This document shows, in pieces, positions 466 to 57,088 of a stretch of 64,000 bases of DNA. Made by a program: the position numbers and the translations under genes. The stretch lies in NCBI GenBank assembly GCA_000002435.2, contig CM018789.1. One strand, given 5' to 3'. The number at the start of each line of letters is the position of its first letter. The first letter of the stretch is position 1. The notes beneath the pieces are model-generated. The model was given only the letters and a program-made list of their open reading frames with translations, was not told where the DNA came from and did no database searches. This DNA is from Giardia intestinalis. Its lineage: Eukaryota.

Positions 466-3387
466 TTAGTGAGGGCCTTGCTTATTCATATTTTTAGTCA
501 AAGCGTTATACAGCTGTGTTTGTAGCTCCTCGTTGACAGGCAGAGATGTCTCCACCTGGGCTCCTAACGTGCGCTGAATCACAGAGGACAAAAGATCCGA
601 CCTTTCCCGGCTCAAGGAAAGCTCCTGACTTCTCACCAAAGCGTCGCCCTCGGCAGTATTGTCGTGAATTGCCAAGAGTTGACCGGGCATAGCATATGCG
701 TGCGCTTTCTTTGGCTCCTGCAGCATGGATGAATCCACTATCGGCGCCTGTGGGCTATGAGCCGCGGTGTGTAGGTATATCTTGGTGATGTTTCTATTGG
801 ATGCCTCTGTCATCCTTCTCGACGGAGAGCTGGGCAATGCAGTCGGCCCAGAATCGTTTAAGTCAGCAGCGAGCAAAGGGAGCTTATCAAATGCGTCTAT
901 AGAGAGATCCTTTGATAAGCGGCCCGTTCCAGCCGGTGATAAAGGGAAGACGTCCTTTGGATCGACTATCGAGGCGGGCAGCTTTCTGGTCTTCCGTTTC
1001 TTGTTTGTCACCAGCTCTTGCAAATCGGCGGCAAGGTCATTGAGAATTCGGCCATGCGGTTCGCTCTTCTCTCCGCCGCTGGTTCGAATGTGAGGAGTTG
1101 TCTCCAAGTTGTGTGGAAAGAGGATTGGAGACAGAGTTGTGGGAAGCTCCACCTGTTGTTGAGGACGGGAACTGCTATCGTCAATCATCGGTTGCTGGTA
1201 TGGTTGGACGTGGGAAGTGTACTCCCTTATCTCAGGGCTTTTCTCGGAGATGGTTATAGACGGCGTTTGCTGCGTAGATTCTCTTGTTGGCGAGATAGGT
1301 AGAGTGCTTTTAGAGACGGGCTGGCTCTCTTCTGTATCTGATACGTGCCTCTGCTGTGCCACGGGCCCCAGCGTGGTAACTGTCGACCCGAAGCTTTTAT
1401 GAATATCAACCTCGGGTGCAGAGGTCCCTAATGCCGTAGCAGATTGTCTACTGGTAGCACTTACACGAATATCTAGTGTATCGTTATTGGGCTTACCTCC
1501 GTCCTGCTCTACTCTGTTCTTAAGCTGATATTGCCTTGAGCCGGCCCTCTTTGCATTGTCCTTTTTGGCGGAAGTTGGGCGCTTTTCTTTAGTGATGCTT
1601 GAAGATGGTAGCTTGACGGATTTTTCTACACCTACTGCAGGCTTTGGCCTGGCACTTTGCGGTCGCCTTCCACGTGTAGCATTAGATGATTCTCTGTTGC
1701 TCCTGTTATCAGCATTTTCTCTTTGCGTGGATATATGTGAGTGTGCCTCCTCTGCGCCCTGGCATGCCTCTTTGTTGCTGATAGACGTATGCGCTTTGTT
1801 GCCTGATCGAGACCTTGAATCAGTAGTTGCTGATGGTCTATGATCGGGCTTCCATGGCCTCTGAGGGGCCTCCGGTATTGTGTGTGTTGCAGCCTCTGAG
1901 AAAGCAGCACCGCTCCCAGAAGCATGGCCGATAACCGTTGGGGCTTTATCATCGCTGGGAATACGATAACGTTCCAATTGTTCAGAGAGGGTTTCTGGTT
2001 TAGTGAGAGAATTAGACTGTCTTCTTTGCTGAGGAAAGCGTGCGCACGGTCTTTGCACTGTGTTTAGTACACCTTCTTGGCAAGCGGCCTCATCTAGCTC
2101 CTGTTTATAACTTGCCATGCTGTTATATTGCCTATTCCATTGTATTGTTTGGATACTGTATCTCTTAATGAAGGACCCATCCTCCCTGCTCCTCCCTGCA
2201 CCATCTGAAGGGTCTGCTTCTTCGCTATAGTCATACAACTGCTGCGTATCGTTCTTACCATATTTCTTCAAGAGATCTACGGATGCTGCCTGTGTCTCCG
2301 GGGCAGTCCCACAATTATCTGCAAGACCTTTATCTCTGGGTTGATTGGCATCCGAGACCAATGCTTTCACTGGTTCGTTGATGATTATATTCTTCTTTGT
2401 ATACGTTTCTGCATCGCCCTCGTTGCTCTCTAGTTTCATGTTATGTCGCCACGGCTTTGCATAGTCCCTTTGATCTTCCCAAATGTCATGCCTGTTTCTA
2501 AATACCTTGTGGTCTCTGCAATTGTCTTCAACGTAAGCCATTGCAAGGTCTGTTGCCAGCATATCCATAACGACATGGTTGTTAGTCTGCTTGAGCGTCC
2601 TTTCATGTGTGTCGTTTTCATGATCCAAAAGGAGGTTTTGCTTATACTCAAGAGAATTGTAATTGGATCGTGTGGAAGACGGGCGTTTAACATTGGCTCC
2701 GTGAGCACTTGTGACGTTCTGCATGATTGCTTTTTTATACGCCAAGTAACTATTGGTACTAGGAAGAGACACGGATGTGGCCATGCTTCCCGAAATGTGT
2801 GGTTTAGGCGACCCTTGTCGCGACGGTTGCTTGGACGCAGGAGGTGTCAGGCCTTCCTGCCGCTGGGGGGACTGAGGGACAGACGCTTGGCTCGCCATTT
2901 CGCCCTTTGACTCACGTGGTGATGAGGTTGGTGACACACTTCTTTCCTGCTTCTGGGACGCGTCGGGCTCTTTAGATTTAGAGGAAGATCGACTAGCGGT
3001 TTTCTGTTGACTCTTCCCAAGTGACCTCCGAGGACTTTTAGAGGTTGGTGTGCTGGCTTTAGAGTTGCTCTTCACATTAGATGACTTGCTGTTAATGGTT
3101 GAGCACGACGCAGTCCTATGGCTTTGGTGCATACTTCCGACTCTACTCGTTGACCGTGAGTCTAGATATGAAAGGCGATATTGCATTAAGCGCTTGTCAA
3201 ACGTTTCAGACTTATCAAAGCTCAGTCTATCAAGATATCGTTCCGGAAAGCTGAGTCGGAACTGATCCTTCAGCTTGTCCTCCGGGAGCCTTACACGCCG
3301 TATGTCTCCGTTATCCGTATACTCCTTGGCCAACTGCAGCGACCCTGCCATGCTCCTACTGGACTTTGTCCGCGCATCCTTGGGCAT
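466..3387 (-). CDS. Hypothetical Ser/Thr/Gln/Pro-rich low-complexity protein (973 aa)
   Basis: Uninterrupted 2.9 kb ORF. ATG confirmed as CAT at 3385-3387 on the + strand. Convergent with the previous gene, 24 bp between stops. No recognisable domain. Confidence 0.5.
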   Translation of the reverse strand: MPKDARTKSSRSMAGSLQLAKEYTDNGDIRRVRLPEDKLKDQFRLSFPERYLDRLSFDKSETFDKRLMQYRLSYLDSRSTSRVGSMHQSHRTASCSTINSKSSNVKSNSKASTPTSKSPRRSLGKSQQKTASRSSSKSKEPDASQKQERSVSPTSSPRESKGEMASQASVPQSPQRQEGLTPPASKQPSRQGSPKPHISGSMATSVSLPSTNSYLAYKKAIMQNVTSAHGANVKRPSSTRSNYNSLEYKQNLLLDHENDTHERTLKQTNNHVVMDMLATDLAMAYVEDNCRDHKVFRNRHDIWEDQRDYAKPWRHNMKLESNEGDAETYTKKNIIINEPVKALVSDANQPRDKGLADNCGTAPETQAASVDLLKKYGKNDTQQLYDYSEEADPSDGAGRSREDGSFIKRYSIQTIQWNRQYNSMASYKQELDEAACQEGVLNTVQRPCARFPQQRRQSNSLTKPETLSEQLERYRIPSDDKAPTVIGHASGSGAAFSEAATHTIPEAPQRPWKPDHRPSATTDSRSRSGNKAHTSISNKEACQGAEEAHSHISTQRENADNRSNRESSNATRGRRPQSARPKPAVGVEKSVKLPSSSITKEKRPTSAKKDNAKRAGSRQYQLKNRVEQDGGKPNNDTLDIRVSATSRQSATALGTSAPEVDIHKSFGSTVTTLGPVAQQRHVSDTEESQPVSKSTLPISPTRESTQQTPSITISEKSPEIREYTSHVQPYQQPMIDDSSSRPQQQVELPTTLSPILFPHNLETTPHIRTSGGEKSEPHGRILNDLAADLQELVTNKKRKTRKLPASIVDPKDVFPLSPAGTGRLSKDLSIDAFDKLPLLAADLNDSGPTALPSSPSRRMTEASNRNITKIYLHTAAHSPQAPIVDSSMLQEPKKAHAYAMPGQLLAIHDNTAEGDALVRSQELSLSRERSDLLSSVIQRTLGAQVETSLPVNEELQTQLYNALTKNMNKQGPH

Positions 3388-3603
3388 TAATTCTGGGATT
3401 GAAGTCTTTTTCCAGAATTTGTTCCTTTCAGTGTTTAGTGTCTTTGTCTTTTATCTTAGCTTTTCTATTAATTGAAAGTCGAAAATAAAGTGATGATTCG
3501 AATTACCGCCCGAGGGCCCTCGGGCTCCGCTGAGGACATGCTGGTCTGACTCCTTTGCTCAACCTTTCCCTCTCCCTGTGACCGCGCGTGGCTCCTGCAG
3601 TGA

Positions 3604-46498: not shown

Positions 46499-46996
46499 AC
46501 GCCAAGAGGTGCTCCACGTCTGCAGATGTCCACCTAGTCGGGGCTCACCAGTAGGATTGCTTTGGCAGCTGCGCCACGAACCACACAGGACAGAGACGCG
46601 GTGATTGGCGCAGCCCCAGAAGGAGCCAGCGGACGCGACCCGTGACAGTCTGACAGGACCAGATTTGTGAAGACGTCTGTCTCTACAAGCCCCTCCACCC
46701 AGCGGCCGTAGCCGAGACCCACCCTGGCCCTCTTTCCCATCAGTCCACCCAGGCAAGGTTTACTGTAGAACCGATGCTTCCCGCTGTTCAGTGTATTTGT
46801 TTGACTAAAGACACGCGGGTCCTTTTCAGATGCGGCTGCAGGACCATCCCGCGTGGAGCTGGGAGAGCGCAACGGCCTCCTCCGCCGCGTACTGCTCCGG
46901 GGCGTCGGCAGGCTGCTCTCGTAGAGCCAGCCGTGGTGGGCCAGCGCCAGCCGTCCTCGCTGCACGGGCTTATGGAGAGCTGGTAGATGAGCTTCG

Positions 46997-48780
46997 TCAG
47001 GTGCTCGCGGAAGGCGGGGAGGCCCTGCAGCTCGAACACCCCGTATATGCGCGAGTAGTCCCCGCCGCGAAGGGCAGTATGTGCTTGGCGATCTTCAGAA
47101 GCACGACGATGGACGAAAGGCTGTTGACCTTGGACAGCTGGTACCCCGGGAAGCTGCACGTGAGCGTGCCCGCCGTGTTCATGTTGGCGGGGCTGTTGGT
47201 GCTATGTCTCCGCGCAGGAACGCCATCAGGTTGGCCAGGTTGTTCGGGATGTACGCCGTCGGCGGCCTGGAGCCCCGCCCGGGACGCTCTGCGCCGCGGC
47301 CCCTGGCTGGCCGCCGTGCTGGAGGGCTGCAGGATGTGCGAGACGTAGCCGTAGAAGCAGCGCGACGCCGTCAGCAGGCAGAACAGCCGCCTGCCGCTCA
47401 CCAGGCTATGAAGGGGCCTCGCGGGGTCTAGCGCCGGGTCCGGCGGGGCGCCCTGCTTGGCGGGCCTGGCCTGCAGGAGGAGAAGGACGTGGAGGCAGCT
47501 CTTCAGCACAGACTCCCGGATGTGCCGCGTGGACGACGGGGTGTTGCTGGAGAACGCGCCCTTCTCGGCGTCCCTCGTCGTGCCCGCAGTCGCCTTGGCC
47601 GACAGGACCGTCTCCAGCATGTGGGGGACCCCACACAGCGCCAGGCGGAGCAGCGACGAGAGGAACGCCGGCATGTCGACCTCCCGGTTCAGGTGGTAGA
47701 GCTGGTGCCCCAGGACGCAGTCGGCCTCGTTGGAAATGCCGACGAGCATCGCCCGCTGGACGTCCAGGGGGAGCGCGTAGGCGAGCACGTTGACCAGCTC
47801 GTGGCACTTGATGCTGCGGAACCGCTCCTCGTGGTGGTTGAAGGACAGCGCCTTCTCTATGCACCGCTCGAAGTAGGGCAGATTGCCCTTCGCACCCGGC
47901 CTCCCCGAGAACGGGAAGGACGCGGTCAGCCCCCGCTTGACCCTGTTGAGGTACACGCGGTAGTCGCCGGTGGCCACCGCGTTGCCGAGGGTGCGCTCCA
48001 GCTCGGCGTCGTGCCCGCCGTGGAGGTCTGCCAGGGACTGCAGGCCGATCCGCACGTCCGGCCCGGGCGCCGCCTGTTGGGCTGGGGGCGTTGAAGGCCG
48101 TCATGACGCTTGCACACTCTGCCATCTGGTCTGCGACGCCCTTGTCGGCGTAGGGGAGACGTTGCCGGACGAGAAGGGGGCGGAAGCCGCTCGACGGTCT
48201 CGATCGCGCAGGACCCGGCGCTGCCCTGCTCCTCCAGGGCCATCCTGCGGATGCTCCGGCACGTCCGGGCCTGCTTGTGGCCGCCCAGGGGCCCAGGAGG
48301 AGGAGGAGCGCCTGCCTGGATCAGCTTGGAGAGCAGGCGCGCAAGGGCTGGACCAGGGCCCTGACGAAGCCTTCGAAGGTGCGGAGGCAGGGCAAGCAGT
48401 CGACCGAGCCGTCCAGGCGGTCGCAGACGGTGACCCCCCGCAGGTTCAGGGAGGCCAGCACAAGGTGCAGGACCTGGATGCAGTGGGCCAGGGGAGGCGG
48501 GAGCTGCTTGCTTGCGTTCTGCGTCGACTCCGCCCTCAGGTCCGAGAGGGAGGCCGCGCACTCGCCGGGACGCCGAACCGCTTGAGGACCTGCCTGAAAA
48601 GGGAGCCGCCGTTGTGGAGGAAGAGGAGGAGCGCCCGCCTCGCCTCGTCGGCGCCCATCTCGTCCTCGAAGAGCGAGAGGAACGACTCGCTGAGCTCGTA
48701 GATCGCCGGCTCCACGTCCGACCACACGACCGGGAGCGGGGCGGTCGTCCGGTTCTAGTCCAGGCTTCCGTCCCCCATGT
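46997..48780 (-). pseudogene. Hypothetical gene disrupted by multiple frame changes (pseudogene or uncorrected indels in GC-rich sequence)
   Basis: Protein-like minus-strand segments sit in different frames. Frame 1: VVWSDVEPAIYELSESFLSLFEDEMGADEARRALLLFLHNGGSLFRQVLKRFG. Frame 2: LAHCIQVLHLVLASLNLRGVTVCDRLDGSVDCLPCLRTFEGFVRALVQPL. Frame 1 again: MRIGLQSLADLHGGHDAELERTLGNAVATGDYRVYLNRVKRGL...PYFERCIEKALSFNHHEERFRSIKCHELVNVLAYALPLDVQRAMLVGISNEADCVLGHQLYHLNREVD... No single frame is open across the region. Confidence 0.35.
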
Positions 48781-50244
48781 TTGCGGTTTCATGGCCCGCG
48801 CGGCCCTCTGCCCCAATCCATAGGGCCATGGGCTTGAGCAGACGAGCGCTGCCCATTCATCCTCTACTATACGTTTCCACGGATGGCACCGTTCGCGGCA
48901 GGGGCACTGAAGCCTCAGGCGTTCCTCTCTGCCAACAACCATGAACTACGGTAAGGTCCTGACTAGGCTGGAAGGCGCTCTGGCGGTGGCACGGGCAACT
49001 GCTAGACCCGCCCGCATCGGCCTCTGGTCATGAAGGCGAGCTGGCCCTTCCTTGGTGTGTCCTCCATACTAGTGGGACTTGCCGCGCTTCCCCCTCACGT
49101 GCAGCCAAAGGCCATGGCCGACGTCCGCACTGGTCATATAGCCGACCTCCGCGACTCTGGTGGCAGCGTGCTTGCTCGCTTATTCCACGAGGCATGGGCA
49201 TGGTAGTTACCGGCCTTGCTGCACAGCTCTTGACGGCGCCTTCCAGCCATTGCATCGGCCAGCTGTGCTACTTACAAGAAGCTCGCGCGCGTTCCCAACG
49301 TTGCAGCAACGCACGCTTGATCCCCGGCGGTGATTACTTTCATTAGTGGTGGTGCCCGCTCCGTCTCTAATCTGGTGTCGAACACACCAAGGATGATAGC
49401 GGCGCCACTCACGTTGCCGACGACTGCTTTATCCTGGCTTCTCAGATTGAAGGAGTGCTCTTGCTGGGCGTGGGCTCCCACGCTCCCCTTCATGGCCTCC
49501 TGGCCCTGTGCAATCTCTTCCTGGAAAAACGATATGCTGCTGTGCGCGATGTCGTGCACGGCATGTCGCCGAAGCAATAGCAGGGCTGCGCAATCATGCA
49601 TCCACTTGGTGGGCTACATGACTTGGCCCGCCATGCTTCTCTGTGCCTTCTTGTCAGTGCTAAGCGGGCACCCTTACGACGGCCAGCGCCTATGCGGCTG
49701 CGTGTCTATTCAGCGTATTTGCTCGCGTCATTATCGATTTACCGTACTTGGTCTCCTCATTGAGCTCTGCAATTGTCAGCTGCCACAGAGCGAGGCAGGT
49801 TCTTACTCTGCCCGAGGGCGATTATTGTGGGAAGCTCCATGCAAAGAACGACTCCACAGCGGCTCAGTTTGTTATATGGACAGCTGGCAACCCGAGTTGT
49901 TCGTGGGGGAGACAGTGCCACAGACACATACCCTCTTCTCTCAATTCTAACAAGCAATCTTACAAGACCAGGAACAGAAGATTGCTGTCCATGAGGGCGG
50001 CTCTAAACTGCTCGGCGCATACAATGCACTCGAGAAGAGGCCTCCTGAAGATGTGCTGGTAGGCGCGGAATCGGACGGTCCGATCGAGACGCCGTCCCTG
50101 GCAGCCGCTGGTTCTCCTAGGGGCGACGAGCCCCATGCCCCCGATGGACTCCTACTTCCAAAGCCCCAGCCGGCAACGCCTGATGCCTCCAGGTGCTCCT
50201 CTCAAACTGACAGATTAAGGAAGTACTATGTTGAGCTAGCAGCC

Positions 50245-52800
50245 ATGCATAGGCAGATTACCGTACTTCAGTCTTCCGTACGCGAATCAGAGACAGAGTG
50301 CGTGCCAGTTCTTAGATCCTTGTAGTTTAGTATTCCTAGGGGGTGCCTGGTTGGGGTGGGGGGCTGTGTTGGCTCCGGGAAGTCGAGCTTCCTATTGGCT
50401 ATTCTGGGAGAGGTGGCCCTTTCGACATCAAGTAGTTCGGATTCCGCTCATATACACTCGGTGGGCCGTATTGCATACTGCTCGCAGGTGCCGTCCGTGT
50501 TTACAGGGACCATACAGTTCAATATCCAGTTATTCTTACCCTATGATGAAGAGAAAATGCAGCTTGCAACTCGACTCTCCTGTCTGGATGGGGACCTTTC
50601 TGAACTACCAGGGGGGCTTGCCACACTTGTTGGCAGCCGCGGTGTGACACTGTCTGGAGGACAGAAAGCTCGATTATCAATTGCCAGGGCCATCTACTCC
50701 GACGCGGATATTTACTTGTTTGATGATCCGTTCGCCTCTCTGGACTCTCATGTTTGCAAGTCGTTATGGAGCGAGACCATCAAAGGGTATCTACTTGCAA
50801 GGGGGAAGACCGTTGTGTTGGCGACCAATCAGATGCATTACTTTCGTTCGTGCTTAAAGGTGCTATTTATAGATGCTGGCACGATCAAAGAAGTGACACC
50901 AGAGAGCGTAGATATAGACTGTTCTCCTCTGCCCGTCGCAGAAGTCCTCTCACTGACCTCTATACAGGCTGTAGAGAAACACGACTCTGACTATCAAGTG
51001 CATCGAATGGCAGCAGTGCTTAAGGAGGAGAAATGCACGGAGCTGGGATCTGTTAATTCTAAATATTACAAGCTATGGTTCAAGGCAGGCGGGACCTGGA
51101 GATTCGTCATTTATGTTGTCATGTGGGTCTTCTGTATACTTATGTTGCAACTGGCGTCGCTGCTCATCAACTTCTGGACCGAACAGCGGCTAGGGCTGAG
51201 CACAGGTGGTTGCATAGGTCTGTTCTTGTCGTTCTCCTTTGCATTTATGGTGATCCTCTTCGTTGGGCAGCTCTTCTATATGCTGTTCACACGGAAGGCG
51301 GCAGAGAAGCTGTACTACAGCATGGAAGAGGGGCTTATCAATACATCGATGTCGTTCTATGACGCACACCCCATTGGACGGATCCTTAACCGCCTGATAG
51401 CAGACACAGGTACATGTGATTTGACGGTGAAGAATGGCCTAGCAGCGACATGTGAGAACTCCATCTTTGTGCTGGGTTCATTACTGGCCACTTTGCTGAT
51501 GAGCTGGCCATCTACGTTTGTGCTAGTTCCCTTGCTGGGACTGTTCCTTTGGATGTTCATGGGATTTCGTGCTGTGTCGCCCCTCTTGCGACGCACCACC
51601 TCCCTCTTGAATAGCCATGTGTGTAACTTTATTCTAGACACATACTACAACCTGGCATCTCTTAGAGCGTATAGGTATGAAGCCCAGGCGGCAAGCTACT
51701 ACGCCAGAGCCGTCCTAGCTATGGAGGCGGCATTTTGGATGGATGTTTCCCTCTACAGATGGCTACACTTTACAACTACCCTTCTATCTATCTGTGTGTC
51801 CGCAGTAGTTACTGTGTCCACTATCATAACGTCTTCTTTTGCTAACGGAGAGATATTTTCAGGTACCGTACTCATGAATGGCTTTGATGTTGTCATGATG
51901 TTAATAGATATGTGCTTCGGGATTGTTGCAATGGATCTTTCTATGGCCAGCGTGGAGAGGGTAGCAGAGTACGCTACTCTTGAACCAGAGAGTACAAGCG
52001 CTCCGCATAGCCCAAGTAGCTTGCCGGCAGACTCTACTCTCGGGCTTATTGTGCAAGATCTTTCGCTACGCTATCAACAGCATTTGCCAGTTGTGCTTCA
52101 TGGGATCTCATTCACAGCGGCCAAGGGAGAGCGCGTTGCAATCATAGGAAAGACAGGGTCTGGCAAGTCATCCCTTGTCAATGCGATTCTCAGACTTGTC
52201 GAGCCAGAGGCGGGCTCTGAGATTCTCTTGAATGGCCTGAACCTGCTGAAGATGGGCTTACATCAGGCACGGTCTAAGGTGACGCTGATACCACAGGATC
52301 CTTTTATTTTCTCCGGGACACTGCGAGCCTATCTCTCCGGGGATAGACGGTTCTCAGATGAGGAGCTGTGGCGTGTCTTGGAGAAGACGCACTTGCGTGA
52401 ATACTTCGCAGCTCAGTCAAAGCAACTTGACTACCACCTTTTTGATAACGGCAGCAACCTTTCGCTCGGACAGCGACAGCTTCTGTGCGTAGCCCACGCG
52501 CTGCTCAGAGACACAGAAGTCATCCTATTGGACGAGGTAACAGCACACGTAGATAGTGCCGCAGAGGCGGCTATTCAGGATGCCCTGGGGGCATATAAGG
52601 AGCAAAAGATCATTATTACGATAGCCCATAGACTCCGCACTGTTTGCAACCAGGATAGGGTTATTGTTATGGCCGGTGGTCAAATAGTCGAGCAGGGTCC
52701 TCCACGCGTGCTGTTTCACAAGCCTGACAGTATCTTTGCCAATATGGTAAGGTGTTCGGTAGATTCGGAAGACCTCGTCGATTTTCTTACGTCGATGTGA
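50245..52800 (+). pseudogene. ABCC (MRP)-type ABC transporter, 5'-truncated (no TMD1) with in-frame TAG at 50323-50325; retains NBD1-TMD2-NBD2
   Basis: NBD1: ...ITV...FSIPRGCLVGVGGCVGSGKSS (Walker A), LSGGQKARLSIARAIYSDADIYLFDDPFASLD (signature and Walker B). TMD2: about 6 hydrophobic helices (WRFVIYVVMWVFCILMLQLASLLINFW...). NBD2: GKTGSGKSSL, LSLGQRQLLCVAHALL, VILLDEVTAHVD, IAHRL. Reading back in frame from 50356 gives RSL-TAG-FSIPRG, the start of NBD1 interrupted by a stop. Nothing resembling TMD1 lies upstream. PolyA signal AGTAAAT at 52814-52820. Confidence 0.65.
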
Positions 52801-52813
52801 ATTAGCATATGCT

Positions 52814-52820
52814 AGTAAAT
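52814..52820 (+). promoter_or_regulatory. Putative polyA signal AGTAAAT 14 nt after the ABC stop
   Basis: Exact AGTRAAY match. Confidence 0.35.
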
Positions 52821-52933
52821 CCACAGAGCGCTTGCGTAGACAGGTAGCAGGGCGATCGACACCCCGCAGAAACGAGTCTTTTGCGGTCAGTGACACCTAA
52901 ATTGTTGGATTGAGGCTCTGTCATAATAAAAGC

Positions 52934-53761
52934 ATGTGTGGATTGGAAAACAACATGGAGGCCAAGCAGAGGGCGAAGCGTCTCAAGGGATACATGATAC
53001 GGTATGACAAGCTTGCAAGGCAGCGCACACGACTTATGGACCACACCGAGCGTCTCGCAGACAGCCGCGTATCCGTGGACGAAGAGACACAGACTCGGGC
53101 GTCCTCGGCCGAGACATCCTTGCATGTACTATACCTGGATGGGCATGGAAACATCTGCCCCACCGTCCCGGTGCAGCCAGGGCTGCCAAGGTGGGTGTCT
53201 CTGCGCGTGAACTCCTGTGCCTCTCTTCTTCTATCGGTTCACAACATCGTAGTCAGGTCGGAGCTTGCCGCACGCTGTGAGACTAACGACGCCGCCGATC
53301 GCATTCTTACCAGAATCCAGACAAACCACGGACCTTCCGTCCAGATCCCCAACGAGTGCATCGTGCTCTGTCCCCCGCCGCCCCTCTTTCTTGAGTCCTT
53401 GCACTATCTCCTGGTGAAACTGCAGCTCTGCACGGCGCCGGTCCCAGGTGCTGACTCCCGAGTGGTCGGCGAGGTTGCGGCCCGCCCATTTACATTCAGC
53501 AGGAATATGACACATAAGGATCGTCAGTTTACACAAATATCCGACACCTACCCAATCGTCCTCGATTCGGAGGTTGTTGGAAGCCTGTGCTTGCGACTGG
53601 AAATGCTTTCGCACGACCATACAATCGAGACCACGCGTCACTTCACGGTAGACTGCTCCAGTCTTAATAGGCCCAATCAGAAAGAAAAACGAAGACTGAT
53701 AGGCGCACAGACACAGACAACTGGATATCTCACTTCGACCTTAGAGGAAAGGCGGCTGTAA
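52934..53761 (+). CDS. Hypothetical protein (~275 aa); start uncertain (52934 or 52955)
   Basis: The ORF-track start at 52910 is a TTG. In-frame ATGs at 52934 and 52955 both follow AT-rich sequence. No domain recognised. Confidence 0.45.
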   Translation: MCGLENNMEAKQRAKRLKGYMIRYDKLARQRTRLMDHTERLADSRVSVDEETQTRASSAETSLHVLYLDGHGNICPTVPVQPGLPRWVSLRVNSCASLLLSVHNIVVRSELAARCETNDAADRILTRIQTNHGPSVQIPNECIVLCPPPPLFLESLHYLLVKLQLCTAPVPGADSRVVGEVAARPFTFSRNMTHKDRQFTQISDTYPIVLDSEVVGSLCLRLEMLSHDHTIETTRHFTVDCSSLNRPNQKEKRRLIGAQTQTTGYLTSTLEERRL

Positions 53762-53788
53762 AGGCTATGACGGCAGAGCTATAACAGC

Positions 53789-54250
53789 TCAGGTGGAGCC
53801 GAACTCCGCTGTGAACTTCGCTATGCGCGACTTGTCAGCTTGGGAGACGCTCGACTTCACGGCTGCCTTGGCACGCAACAGGCTACTCACAGTGACATAG
53901 GGAACCGTCAGCTTATCGTTGGGAATATCCATAAAGTCTTTCTTCTCAGCGCCGGGCATGTCTGATGCTGAAACCTCGTACATGCCTGTGATCTTATTGA
54001 GGCGGAAGTAGGACACCTTCTGCAACACGCGCACGGGGTCCATGAGAGCTTCCTTGCACAATATGCTGAGGTCAGAGCCAGAGTAGTTCTCTGTTTGCTG
54101 TCCGAGCTCAGTGATATCCTCATCTGCTAGCACATTGGGCGTAGTGCCGATGCAATTCTTTATGATATTTGCTCTGGCAGCGGCGTCTGGGAGGACGATC
54201 TCGATGCGCTTCTCGAAGCGGCGGCGGATCTCCACCCAGGCCCCCTTGAA
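53789..54250 (-). pseudogene. VPS4-like AAA ATPase, C-terminal fragment only (no Walker A/B region present)
   Basis: From ...EIRRRFEKRIEIVLPDAAARANIIKNCIGTTPNVLADEDITELGQQTENYSGSDLSILCKEALMDPVRVLQKV...KLTVPYVTVSSLLRAKAAVKSSVSQADKSRIAKFTAEFGST to the stop, this matches the Vps4 second region of homology, small alpha domain and C-terminal helix (human VPS4 ends ...DLLKVKKFSEDFGQES). The roughly 250 aa expected upstream, including GPPGTGKS and DEID, are not found on the minus strand in any frame between 54250 and 55060. Confidence 0.6.
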
Positions 54251-54284
54251 CGGCAACTGTGCGGCCAATCCACGAGCAGCTTTC

Positions 54285-54779
54285 TGTGCAACAATCACAA
54301 GTGGGGCCTGTACACAATGCAATGAGGGTTACTTCCTCAAGGACGGCGGCTGCTATCAGACAGATAGACAGCCTGGTAAGCAGGTCTGTAGTAGTGCACA
54401 GGGAGGAACATGTCAGACGTGTGCCAACGGACTGCAGGTACAAAGTGGGGCCTGTGGGGAGTGCCACTCTACTTGTGCTACGTGCTCGACTGCAGATGAC
54501 CCTAATAAGTGTAAGACCTGTGCCACTGGGTATTACAAGACAAGCGATAATGATGGCCCGTGCATGAAGTGCTCTGAGGGGCTCGCTGGGTGCAGACAGT
54601 GCACAGCGTCATCCACCGATGCGTTCATGTGCCTCGAGATGGGCGATGGCACTGGCGACAACACCGGGGGAAGCACCAACAAGAGCAGCCTCAGCACTGG
54701 CGCCATCGCGGGGATCTCCGTCGCTGTGATTGTCGTTGTGGGGGGCCTTGTGGGCTTTCTCTGCAGGAGAGAGACGTAG
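54285..54779 (+). pseudogene. VSP (variant-specific surface protein)-like 3' fragment with divergent tail (…GGLVGFLCRRET instead of …CRGKA)
   Basis: FCATITSGACTQCNEGYFLKDGGCYQ...CQTCANGL...CGECHSTCATCS...CKTCATGYYK...CMKCSEGLAGCRQC...TNKSSLSTGAIAGISVAVIVVVGGLVGFLCRRET. The CxxC spacing and the TM segment are those of Giardia VSPs. Only about 165 aa are present where VSPs are usually >400 aa. The conserved CRGKA end is replaced by CRRET-stop. Confidence 0.6.
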
Positions 54780-55063: not shown

Positions 55064-57088
55064 ATGAAGCACTCTAAAAGTGAGGAAGAGTTCTTATCGT
55101 GGAAGGAATTCACATCGGAGACATGTACCAAAATATATAAACTAGCTGCTGAGCACTTTTCGCGTCGGTATCTCTCCAATATGACCAGGACTGGGGATCC
55201 TCGTTTTTGGGGGAATGAAATGGAATCTATTATTTTACAAAAGCACCATAAAAACACATATGCGCTTAGCACTAATCACTGTCACGATCAACTTGCAAGA
55301 CTTTCAGATAGATTGACGCTCATGCCTGAATTTGCACGGTTTATCCTTGAGTTCATACCTGTTGCTCCATTTGATGAAGAGCTAAGAGGTCTTCGTCTTA
55401 GATGTGATGAATATACTAGACATGTCACTGACTTGCTCGCTACAGCGGAGCTAGAAGAACTCACGATTCTTTTAGGCACATGCTATCCAGTCTTTGGGAA
55501 AGACTTTTTAATGGACAGGGACGCCTTTAGCTCACAGACTCCCGACCAGCTTGAGCTATTGAAGACCAAAATGCTCGAGTACGTCACTGATACTGGTAGG
55601 TATCGTACGCTAGTCTCCAATATGCTTTTGCGGAAGGGCAGTATCTCGTGGGCTACCGTGTCTTCTAGTTGTGGAGACACGTACTATCTCCCAGGGCCTC
55701 TGTTTGGTATGGGCTTGTGTGGGATGCATGTCACGATCCAGAGTGCAACCATGGAAGACTCGCGCCTCCTTTACGATGCACTTCAACCCTTGTGTCCGGT
55801 TCTCTTGGCTCTTAGCGCATCTACTAGCGTATTGGCTGGGGTTGTTCTAGATAAGGATACGCGGACATCCTATTTGTCTGATGCCATGGACGATCGGCCA
55901 CTACATGAGCACTCTATAGGACTACCAAGACGCTATAGTGTGGCAGGAGTGTATATTGCAAATCATCCAGCAAATATCCCTCTTTTAAACGACGTATCAC
56001 CTGTTTCATCAGGGCTCAGTAGTAGATCTAGTGTCATTCAGTCTAGTGGTAATGATTCCAAAATACATGCCTACGTTCAATCTGTTATTTCACATTTTCC
56101 ATTAGTAGTTTTACGAGATTCTCTTGTCTTCCACGATGAAAGTTTTGACTCAGACTGTTGGGATCAAATACATTCGCTTTTTTGGCCGACTTGTCGTTGG
56201 AAAGTTCCCCCAATAGACTCTCTCAAAGGAAGTACGGGCTGGCGCACTGAAGTTCGTTGCATGGAGATGCAGTTCTCCATAGCAGAGAACCTTGCATACT
56301 CGGTCTTTGTGTTCCTGCTTTCAAGTGCCATTAGAGACATGGGTCTGCTATTCTACATTCCTCAGACTTTCATCTTACAGGATATGTCTTCTGCAGAAAA
56401 GCGTGACGCTGTTAATAATGAGTTGTTCTGGGTAAGAGACGTCTTCCTCGACCTACACTTCGAAAGTGTATCTGGTGCTGATCTTCAACTCGGCTCCTCA
56501 GGTATCTTTTCAGAGCAATGCAGACAAATGGCTGTAGAGATATTTTCTTCTCAAATCAGATTGGCACTGGAAAATAGACGAGCGTTTGCAACTCTAAGCT
56601 CAGCAGACGATGCTGGTACACATAGGCACACGTGGTGTCCTAAAAGCGTGTGCACGTGTTTCGAGAATAGCATTTCTGATTTTCATCTGATAAAGGTAAG
56701 TCTTAAAGAGTTTATGTGCGGGTCCGCTCGATATCCTGGGCTTCTTCCTGTACTTGCTATGTACACAGACGCATATTTTGATACTATCGCCGATCCCACA
56801 TCCCTGGATGACGTTGAATATATTCACTCTGTCATTTCATATCTTGCAGACCGTGCTGCTGGTGTTATTCCAACCTGTGCTGCAGCAGTGCGAAATCTTA
56901 TACAGAATATGCACACTCACAGAGACAATAGCTTCGCTGAAGTGTGCTCTAGTATGCTTTCAGAACCAGAGGTACAAATAGTTACCGAGTACATGCTTGG
57001 TGCTAGGCGACTATCGCTAGATGGTCTGCGAGAATACTATAGAGCCCACTCTGGTACTGTTAGTATTAGCGTTAGCACCCCCGAATGA
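55064..57088 (+). CDS. GCLC: Glutamate-cysteine ligase catalytic subunit (gamma-glutamylcysteine synthetase, eukaryotic GCS family)
   Basis: 674 aa. N-terminus FWGNEMESIIL (compare KWGDEVEYMLV in animal GCLC). Core GPLFGMGLCGMHVTIQSATMEDSRLLYDALQPLCPVLLALSASTSVLAGVVLDKDTRTSYLSDAMDDRP (compare [67 protein letters not shown]). C-terminal half RWKVPPIDSLKGSTGWRTEVRCMEMQFSIAENLAYSVFVFLLSSAI...IPQTF...AEKRDAVNNELFWVRDVF (compare [43 protein letters not shown]...IPLSKV...AQKRDAVLQGMFYFRKDI). ATG at 55064 confirmed. Confidence 0.8.
   Translation: MKHSKSEEEFLSWKEFTSETCTKIYKLAAEHFSRRYLSNMTRTGDPRFWGNEMESIILQKHHKNTYALSTNHCHDQLARLSDRLTLMPEFARFILEFIPVAPFDEELRGLRLRCDEYTRHVTDLLATAELEELTILLGTCYPVFGKDFLMDRDAFSSQTPDQLELLKTKMLEYVTDTGRYRTLVSNMLLRKGSISWATVSSSCGDTYYLPGPLFGMGLCGMHVTIQSATMEDSRLLYDALQPLCPVLLALSASTSVLAGVVLDKDTRTSYLSDAMDDRPLHEHSIGLPRRYSVAGVYIANHPANIPLLNDVSPVSSGLSSRSSVIQSSGNDSKIHAYVQSVISHFPLVVLRDSLVFHDESFDSDCWDQIHSLFWPTCRWKVPPIDSLKGSTGWRTEVRCMEMQFSIAENLAYSVFVFLLSSAIRDMGLLFYIPQTFILQDMSSAEKRDAVNNELFWVRDVFLDLHFESVSGADLQLGSSGIFSEQCRQMAVEIFSSQIRLALENRRAFATLSSADDAGTHRHTWCPKSVCTCFENSISDFHLIKVSLKEFMCGSARYPGLLPVLAMYTDAYFDTIADPTSLDDVEYIHSVISYLADRAAGVIPTCAAAVRNLIQNMHTHRDNSFAEVCSSMLSEPEVQIVTEYMLGARRLSLDGLREYYRAHSGTVSISVSTPE

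Follow-up and report, generated by a model that had tools for sequence, protein, structure and literature searches.

Within the 64,000-nucleotide stretch of Giardia intestinalis DNA analysed here (the window), pieces of two unrelated genes, a Vps4-like AAA ATPase on the minus strand and a VSP on the plus strand, abut with their 5' parts missing. The question is how two such genes came to be truncated at one point, and whether either piece still does any work. We consider it highly probable that the locus is the scar of a rearrangement, in which an inter-chromosomal segmental duplication was joined into a VSP gene, and that it is not a working system; both gene pieces are non-functional leftovers. 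That two truncated pieces lie side by side was first proposed in a preliminary description of this DNA, and Pfam, tblastn and blastp agree that they do.

The left piece is a 3' fragment of Vps4a, comprising codons 309-454 and the stop codon (53789..54229, minus strand; Pfam, tblastn and 100% amino acid identity). It covers the arginine-finger motif, the AAA lid and Vps4_C. The fragment forms the last 146 codons (IRRRFEKRIEIVLPD...AEFGST*) of a minus-strand ORF at 53789-54322, in which Pfam detects only AAA_lid_3 (PF17862, E 8.3e-10) and Vps4_C (PF09336, E 2.2e-11), and tblastn with full-length Vps4 proteins places the homology exactly from IRRRFEKRI (54229) to the stop. All amino acids are identical to residues 309-454 of WB Vps4a (KAE8305545), and 144 of 146 are identical to the same residues of the P15 Vps4 (tblastn, E 2e-91). 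A full HMMER scan with the fragment returns one 114-aa representative, and paralogues at no more than 53% identity. With 146 of 454 codons, the piece is the last third of the gene and not its 3' half, as was first thought. The MIT domain and the Walker motifs are missing upstream, as originally described: no MIT domain is found in the minus ORF by Pfam or elsewhere in the 64-kb window by tblastn with full-length Vps4, and the Walker A, Walker B and sensor-1 core is absent, with the homology beginning at I309, after sensor 1. The same tblastn search reveals no other Vps4 piece in the 64-kb window, and therefore no nearby N-terminal exon. The frame upstream of the fragment is VSP antisense and bears a stop in AII.

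The right piece is a pseudo-VSP remnant of approximately 180 last codons (54240..54779, plus strand; Pfam, blastp, tblastn). The plus-strand ORF that contains it spans 54111-54779, and its latter part is CxxC-rich and has a VSP-type TM segment at the end. This ORF matches positions 271-388 of the 397 in the VSP profile (Pfam, E 7.9e-40), and the remnant aligns by blastp and tblastn to residues 434-618 of a 625-aa VSP of P15 (assemblage E). The start codon, the signal peptide and the full Cys-rich ectodomain are absent, and the upstream frame is antisense Vps4. A 24-nt deletion common to WB and DH removes the WWFxCRGKA tail, leaving a remnant that ends in ...GFLCRRET*. The TM segment is present in the WB remnant, and in AII it is frameshifted by a 1-nt insertion. 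The initial reading of the piece as only the 3' end of a VSP, with CxxC repeats and a TM segment and without a 5' part, was correct; the 24-nt deletion means that the 3' end is damaged too.

The remnant has also changed unusually fast. Its AI and AII versions are 90.6% identical (49 mismatches and 3 gaps in 550 nt), whereas in the flanks the 284-nt adjacent intergenic region is 100% identical and the glutamate-cysteine ligase (GCS) gene 99.3% identical. The latter gene is the unique right flank of the locus (55064..57088, plus strand). Its product matches XP_001706039.1 / KAE8301237.1 of Giardia intestinalis WB C6 exactly, which identifies the window as WB. The tenfold local excess of AI-AII differences cannot be neutral decay, and exchange with other members of the VSP family is the likely cause. 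The differences cluster at 54380-54510 (compared with L013 and L014) and are accompanied by small indels, a pattern that suggests a putative conversion patch from another VSP.

The two pieces meet at a sharp junction between 54229 and 54230, as located by tblastn and by side-by-side comparison of the window, the full-length Vps4 sequences of DH and P15, and AII junction contigs. On reaching this point the window reads ...GCGGCGGAT and then CTCCACCCAGGCCCCCTTGAACGGC..., and intact Vps4a reads ...GCGGCGGAT and then GGCGCTGTCGAGCGCC.... Homology to Vps4a ends abruptly at 54229 and homology to the P15 VSP is recognisable from 54240 on, with the 10 nucleotides in between (54230..54239, CTCCACCCAG, no strand assigned) being of uncertain origin; microhomology amounts to at most approximately 1 nt. 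The junction is thus slightly to the left of 54245-54285, where the broken ends had been placed, and the loss of Vps4 similarity, described as lying upstream of ~54250, is indeed abrupt, although its exact point is 54229. Because AII-type junction sequences carry TGA TTG as the two codons just upstream of EIRRR, the frame past the Vps4 homology is not conserved. No second copy of the junction and no further Vps4 or VSP piece was found in the 64-kb window, and an Rfam scan of 52.8-55.2 kb gives no match. A weak inverted match between the junction and 54447-54461 (13 of 15 nt) was considered as an inverted repeat and judged to be at chance level.

The same junction occurs in other assemblies. 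An ENA metagenome contig (L001/L013, ERZ27317378) carries it within a sequence that spans from GCS to an ABC transporter gene and is 98.4-98.6% identical to the window over 14 kb. It is also found in DH contig AHGT01000093 (L014), from a 454 assembly, and a second ENA assembly (L015) crosses it by 55 nt. All of these are assemblage A sequences with lineage-specific substitutions on both sides of the junction. Beyond the WB reference, at least three assemblage A assemblies thus have the identical junction, and none of those compared reads differently there. Because AII-type assemblies carry it, the junction is older than the AI/AII split. It is absent in P15, in a B-like contig and in L008-type contigs, in all of which the syntenic Vps4 is either complete or longer than the fragment.

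This recurrence bears on the simplest alternative, namely that a Vps4a-containing repeat was wrongly joined to a VSP during assembly of the WB genome. Repeated sequence families do lie on both sides of the junction, and other assemblies break or jump nearby: many contigs end close to it, a second DH contig (AHGT01000062) looks chimeric, and ENA contig L025 passes from Vps4a to Vps4b. However, a misjoin in WB does not explain why the exact junction bases recur in L014, L001/L013 and L015 together with lineage-specific substitutions, and the WB reference was assembled from PacBio reads and an optical map (PMC7000408). We regard such an artefact as scarcely credible. The preliminary description had left a choice among a recombination breakpoint, an inversion breakpoint and a chimeric join. 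The finding of the junction in other assemblies, and of both parent genes intact elsewhere, shows that recombination did bring together two unrelated genes, each of them truncated; the junction is the edge of a multi-gene duplication, and not an assembly chimera.

The intact parents, which it had been suggested should be sought, are found both in WB and in P15. The full-length WB Vps4a gene (GL50803_101906, KAE8305545, 454 aa) is on the 4,018,654-bp record, as is Vps4b, and the order of accessions there is phosphatase (5543), methyltransferase (5544), Vps4a (5545) and GL50803_00137699 (5546). The last of these (KAE8305546, P0208) differs at 6 residues from the product of an intact 275-aa hypothetical gene in the window, GL50803_00137692 (52934..53761, plus strand; exact match to KAE8301234, P0209), which, together with GCS (KAE8301237), is on the 1,485,438-bp record. 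One genome thus contains two copies of a block with different flanks, the second WB locus being placed from annotation and accession order. Because WB Vps4a is intact and the 275-aa gene is doubled, the fragment is to be read as the end of a duplicated block and not as the remains of a broken single-copy gene.

In P15, one contig carries, in order, the ABC transporter, a 276-aa gene, a convergent Vps4 of 454 aa, and methyltransferase, phosphatase and acyltransferase genes, and this syntenic Vps4 has MIT, AAA, lid and Vps4_C domains. On another contig (L002), an intact 625-aa VSP ending in ...CWWFICRGRA lies directly upstream of GCS. Because the 3' flank of this VSP aligns to the window, the WB remnant is its positional orthologue. 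A B-type contig (L007) and the distant contigs L008-L011 likewise have a longer Vps4 in the syntenic position.

One alternative is a simple reciprocal exchange, by translocation or inversion, in which a VSP and a single-copy Vps4 were both cut and their 5' halves became joined elsewhere. Two head-to-head, 5'-truncated genes do resemble one reciprocal product of such an exchange, and synteny is divided between the two loci: the left side of the window is syntenic with a distant assemblage (Ank/RING, LSM, the 1081-aa gene and the ABC transporter; tblastn), and the right side of the Vps4a locus is syntenic with P15. Against this, the Vps4a locus retains the full-length gene and there are two copies of the 275-aa gene, which puts the duplicated length at 4.6 kb or more, and probably at 7 kb or more. 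A simple exchange is accordingly very improbable, and is workable only with staggered breakpoints whose overlap is kept in both products, which makes it a variant of the segmental duplication favoured here. The two-sided synteny fits such a staggered-breakpoint translocation at least as well as a copy-paste insertion.

To the left of the 275-aa gene, the duplicated block contains a dead copy of the ABC transporter (48811..52800, plus strand; tblastn, alignments and fragmented ORFs), the intact version of which is 1403 aa and is found in contigs L021 and L022. Its lesions include a 94-nt deletion at 49587, a 4-nt deletion near 49999, a 2-nt deletion and many indels further 5'. The 94 nt missing at 49587 in WB are kept in the AII copy-2 contigs, in copy-1-type contigs, in P15 and in B; the loss is a WB-lineage deletion in the dead copy. 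Further left is a frameshifted, GC-rich remnant (46829..48790, minus strand; tblastn matches in three frames and the ORF list) of the gene upstream of the ABC transporter. This gene is 1081 aa in L008 and 686 aa in P15, and the GC content of the remnant is 65-71%.

Identity to the intact copy changes along the block. The intact copy (copy 1) was represented by short-read contigs L021, L022 and L024, which encode the 275-aa protein of the other copy exactly; copy 1 is known from annotation, accession order, these short Logan contigs, which may mix both copies, and DH contig AHGT01000062, which looks chimeric over the repeat. Identity between the window and the copy-1-type contigs is 66-85% at 48.7-49.5 kb, 93-94% at 49.5-50.1 kb, and 99-100% at 50.1-54.2 kb. 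The sliding identity profile and the direction of substitutions delimit a recently homogenised part of the block at 50101..54229 (no strand assigned). In the last interval, the window is more similar to the copy-1-type contigs than WB is to AII at the same locus. The Vps4a fragment itself differs from these contigs by 1 nt in 414, and a single base, G at 54089, distinguishes it from Vps4a. We infer that gene conversion was the homogeniser and that it extended as far as the homology does, to 54229, which accounts for the undecayed state of the Vps4 fragment beside an old junction.

The DH contig AHGT01000062 (L012/L026) contains a full-length Vps4a and yet has the copy-2-type 2-nt ABC frameshift and left end. 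Either the repeat was collapsed in the 454 assembly, or conversion moved lesions to the Vps4a-linked copy in DH.

The unconverted part, at 47000-50100, has a GC content of 60-71%, whereas both the live copy and P15 have 45-49%. On the window lineage, AT-to-GC changes outnumber GC-to-AT changes by 88 to 8 at 48800-49590 and by 21 to 4 at 49591-50100, and the two directions are balanced in the near-identical part of the block. The GC enrichment at 47000-50100 may reflect either GC-biased repair or conversion, or a mutational bias.

The undecayed state of the Vps4a fragment could also mean that it is used. It might be an exon trans-spliced to a Vps4 5' part encoded elsewhere, as occurs with HSP90 and dynein in Giardia, or it might encode a small protein, made up of the lid and Vps4_C, with a modulating effect on Vps4 oligomers. 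The frame is undamaged and its translation matches Vps4a at 100% of residues, and its differences within assemblage A are mostly synonymous (5 differences between the window and L001, of which 1, a D to N change confined to AII truncated copies, is non-synonymous), although these counts are too small to exclude purifying selection. The 99-100% identity that extends over all 4 kb of the block, the dead ABC gene included, nevertheless accounts for the conservation. Moreover, a split gene is unneeded when Vps4a is intact in WB, AII has a TGA directly upstream, and the first in-frame ATG leaves only approximately 85 codons. On inspection by eye, the minus strand upstream of 54229 shows no Giardia-type branch/acceptor motif (CTRAC followed by ACACAG). 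Trans-splicing and a hidden intron were rejected on this basis, together with the AII stop and the intact Vps4a. Five trans-introns are annotated in Giardia (PMC7000408, Table 1), but we think it most unlikely that the fragment is a functional piece.

We infer the following order of events for the favoured segmental duplication. In the lineage ancestral to assemblage A, a block originating at the Vps4a locus would have been joined non-homologously into the VSP upstream of GCS, whether by copy-paste insertion or by a translocation with staggered breakpoints. The block carried the ABC transporter and the 275-aa gene and ended with the final 441 nt of Vps4a. The join presumably fell at approximately VSP codon 430, with loss of the 5' two-thirds of the VSP. 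As a result, WB carries the block on each of two chromosomes: one copy is intact and has a full Vps4a, and the second has the truncated Vps4a, the dead ABC transporter and the pseudo-VSP. Inter-chromosomal gene conversion would have kept the right-hand 4 kb of the truncated copy nearly identical to the intact copy, and the VSP remnant would still be changing fast, probably via exchange with other VSPs.

A bolder extension is that conversion between the truncated block and the live Vps4a/ABC locus is still going on, so that a dead copy would repeatedly trade sequence with essential genes on another chromosome. It might even export frameshifts to them, as the broken ABC gene beside full-length Vps4a in DH contig AHGT01000062 could indicate, as its unconverted part decays under an extreme AT-to-GC bias. 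We offer this tentatively, and consider it rather doubtful at present. If true, the locus would allow the length of conversion tracts and the GC bias of repair to be measured at base resolution in a natural example from an asexual-like tetraploid protist. In any case, it is a modest natural setting in which to examine gene conversion between chromosomes and the GC-biased decay of a pseudogene.

Both halves of the locus resemble known Giardia elements. The WB reference contains 208 pseudo-VSPs and 6.9% duplicated sequence, with multi-gene duplications of up to 20 kb (PMC7000408). Like other WB pseudo-VSPs, the remnant lacks a signal peptide and proper start but keeps CxxC repeats and the conserved TM segment. 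Unlike them, it is solitary and not in an array, has an intact P15 VSP as its positional orthologue, has lost its tail through the 24-nt deletion, and is fused to a fragment of a non-VSP gene. Comparison of WB with P15 has revealed 113 synteny breaks, at which VSPs are the second commonest gene class, and the comparison includes PCR-verified chromosome 1-5 rearrangements (PMC3091692). The present locus is like these VSP-associated breaks and multi-gene duplications in being assemblage-specific, in having a VSP at the break, in involving two chromosomes and in comprising a block smaller than 20 kb. It differs in having a junction known to single-base resolution, two truncated partners of established identity, and a graded identity profile indicative of later conversion. 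The locus is therefore a well-resolved new instance of an already-known type of event, and not a new biological system. It explains an odd pair of gene fragments as a base-resolved case of VSP genes marking points of chromosome rearrangement in Giardia. A search of the literature on the two gene IDs found nothing relevant.

The Vps4a fragment is a fourth Vps4-related sequence in assemblage A, outside the three described paralogues. Surveys of ESCRT components list three Vps4 paralogues and do not mention the fragment (PMC12611102, PMC10758263). It shares residues 309-454 and the same 3' flank with Giardia Vps4a (GL50803_101906), an SKD1/Vps4 AAA ATPase of the meiotic clade, but differs from it in lacking the MIT domain, Walker A/B, the pore loops, sensor 1 and a start codon at the boundary, and in residing on a different chromosome. 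Identity with the short paralogue GlVps4c (~30 kDa, GL50803_15469) was considered and rejected, as GlVps4c primers have no match in the window. The published reverse cloning primer for glvps4a (PMC12611102, S1 Table), on the other hand, matches the window exactly at 53780-53799. Because the primer site and the sequence are shared, primers, probes, short reads, and C-terminal antibodies or peptides cannot separate Vps4a from the fragment.

Two further observations concern the genes in this neighbourhood. In Giardia, the AAA core of Vps4a is 100% identical to that of Vps4b, and the ends of the two occur in different combinations in different lineages (P0181, P0183, P0187, P0188, P0185). The syntenic gene in assemblage B (EES99642, L007 6651-7922, misnamed 'Topoisomerase II') combines a b-type N-terminus with an a-type C-terminus, and ENA contig L025 (8292-9836) combines an a-type N-terminus with a b-type C-terminus and the genes downstream of Vps4b. 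These end swaps either reflect true recombination or arose where an assembler crossed from one gene to the other within the identical core. In addition, P15 contig ACVC01000130 (L006) has a 2-kb unannotated gap at 1432-3450 that contains a remnant resembling a VSP TM segment (1813-1924). This remnant is 79% identical to window positions 54656-54767 and adjoins the gene that is 686 aa in P15 and 1081 aa in L008, and the gap possibly marks another VSP-associated break close by.
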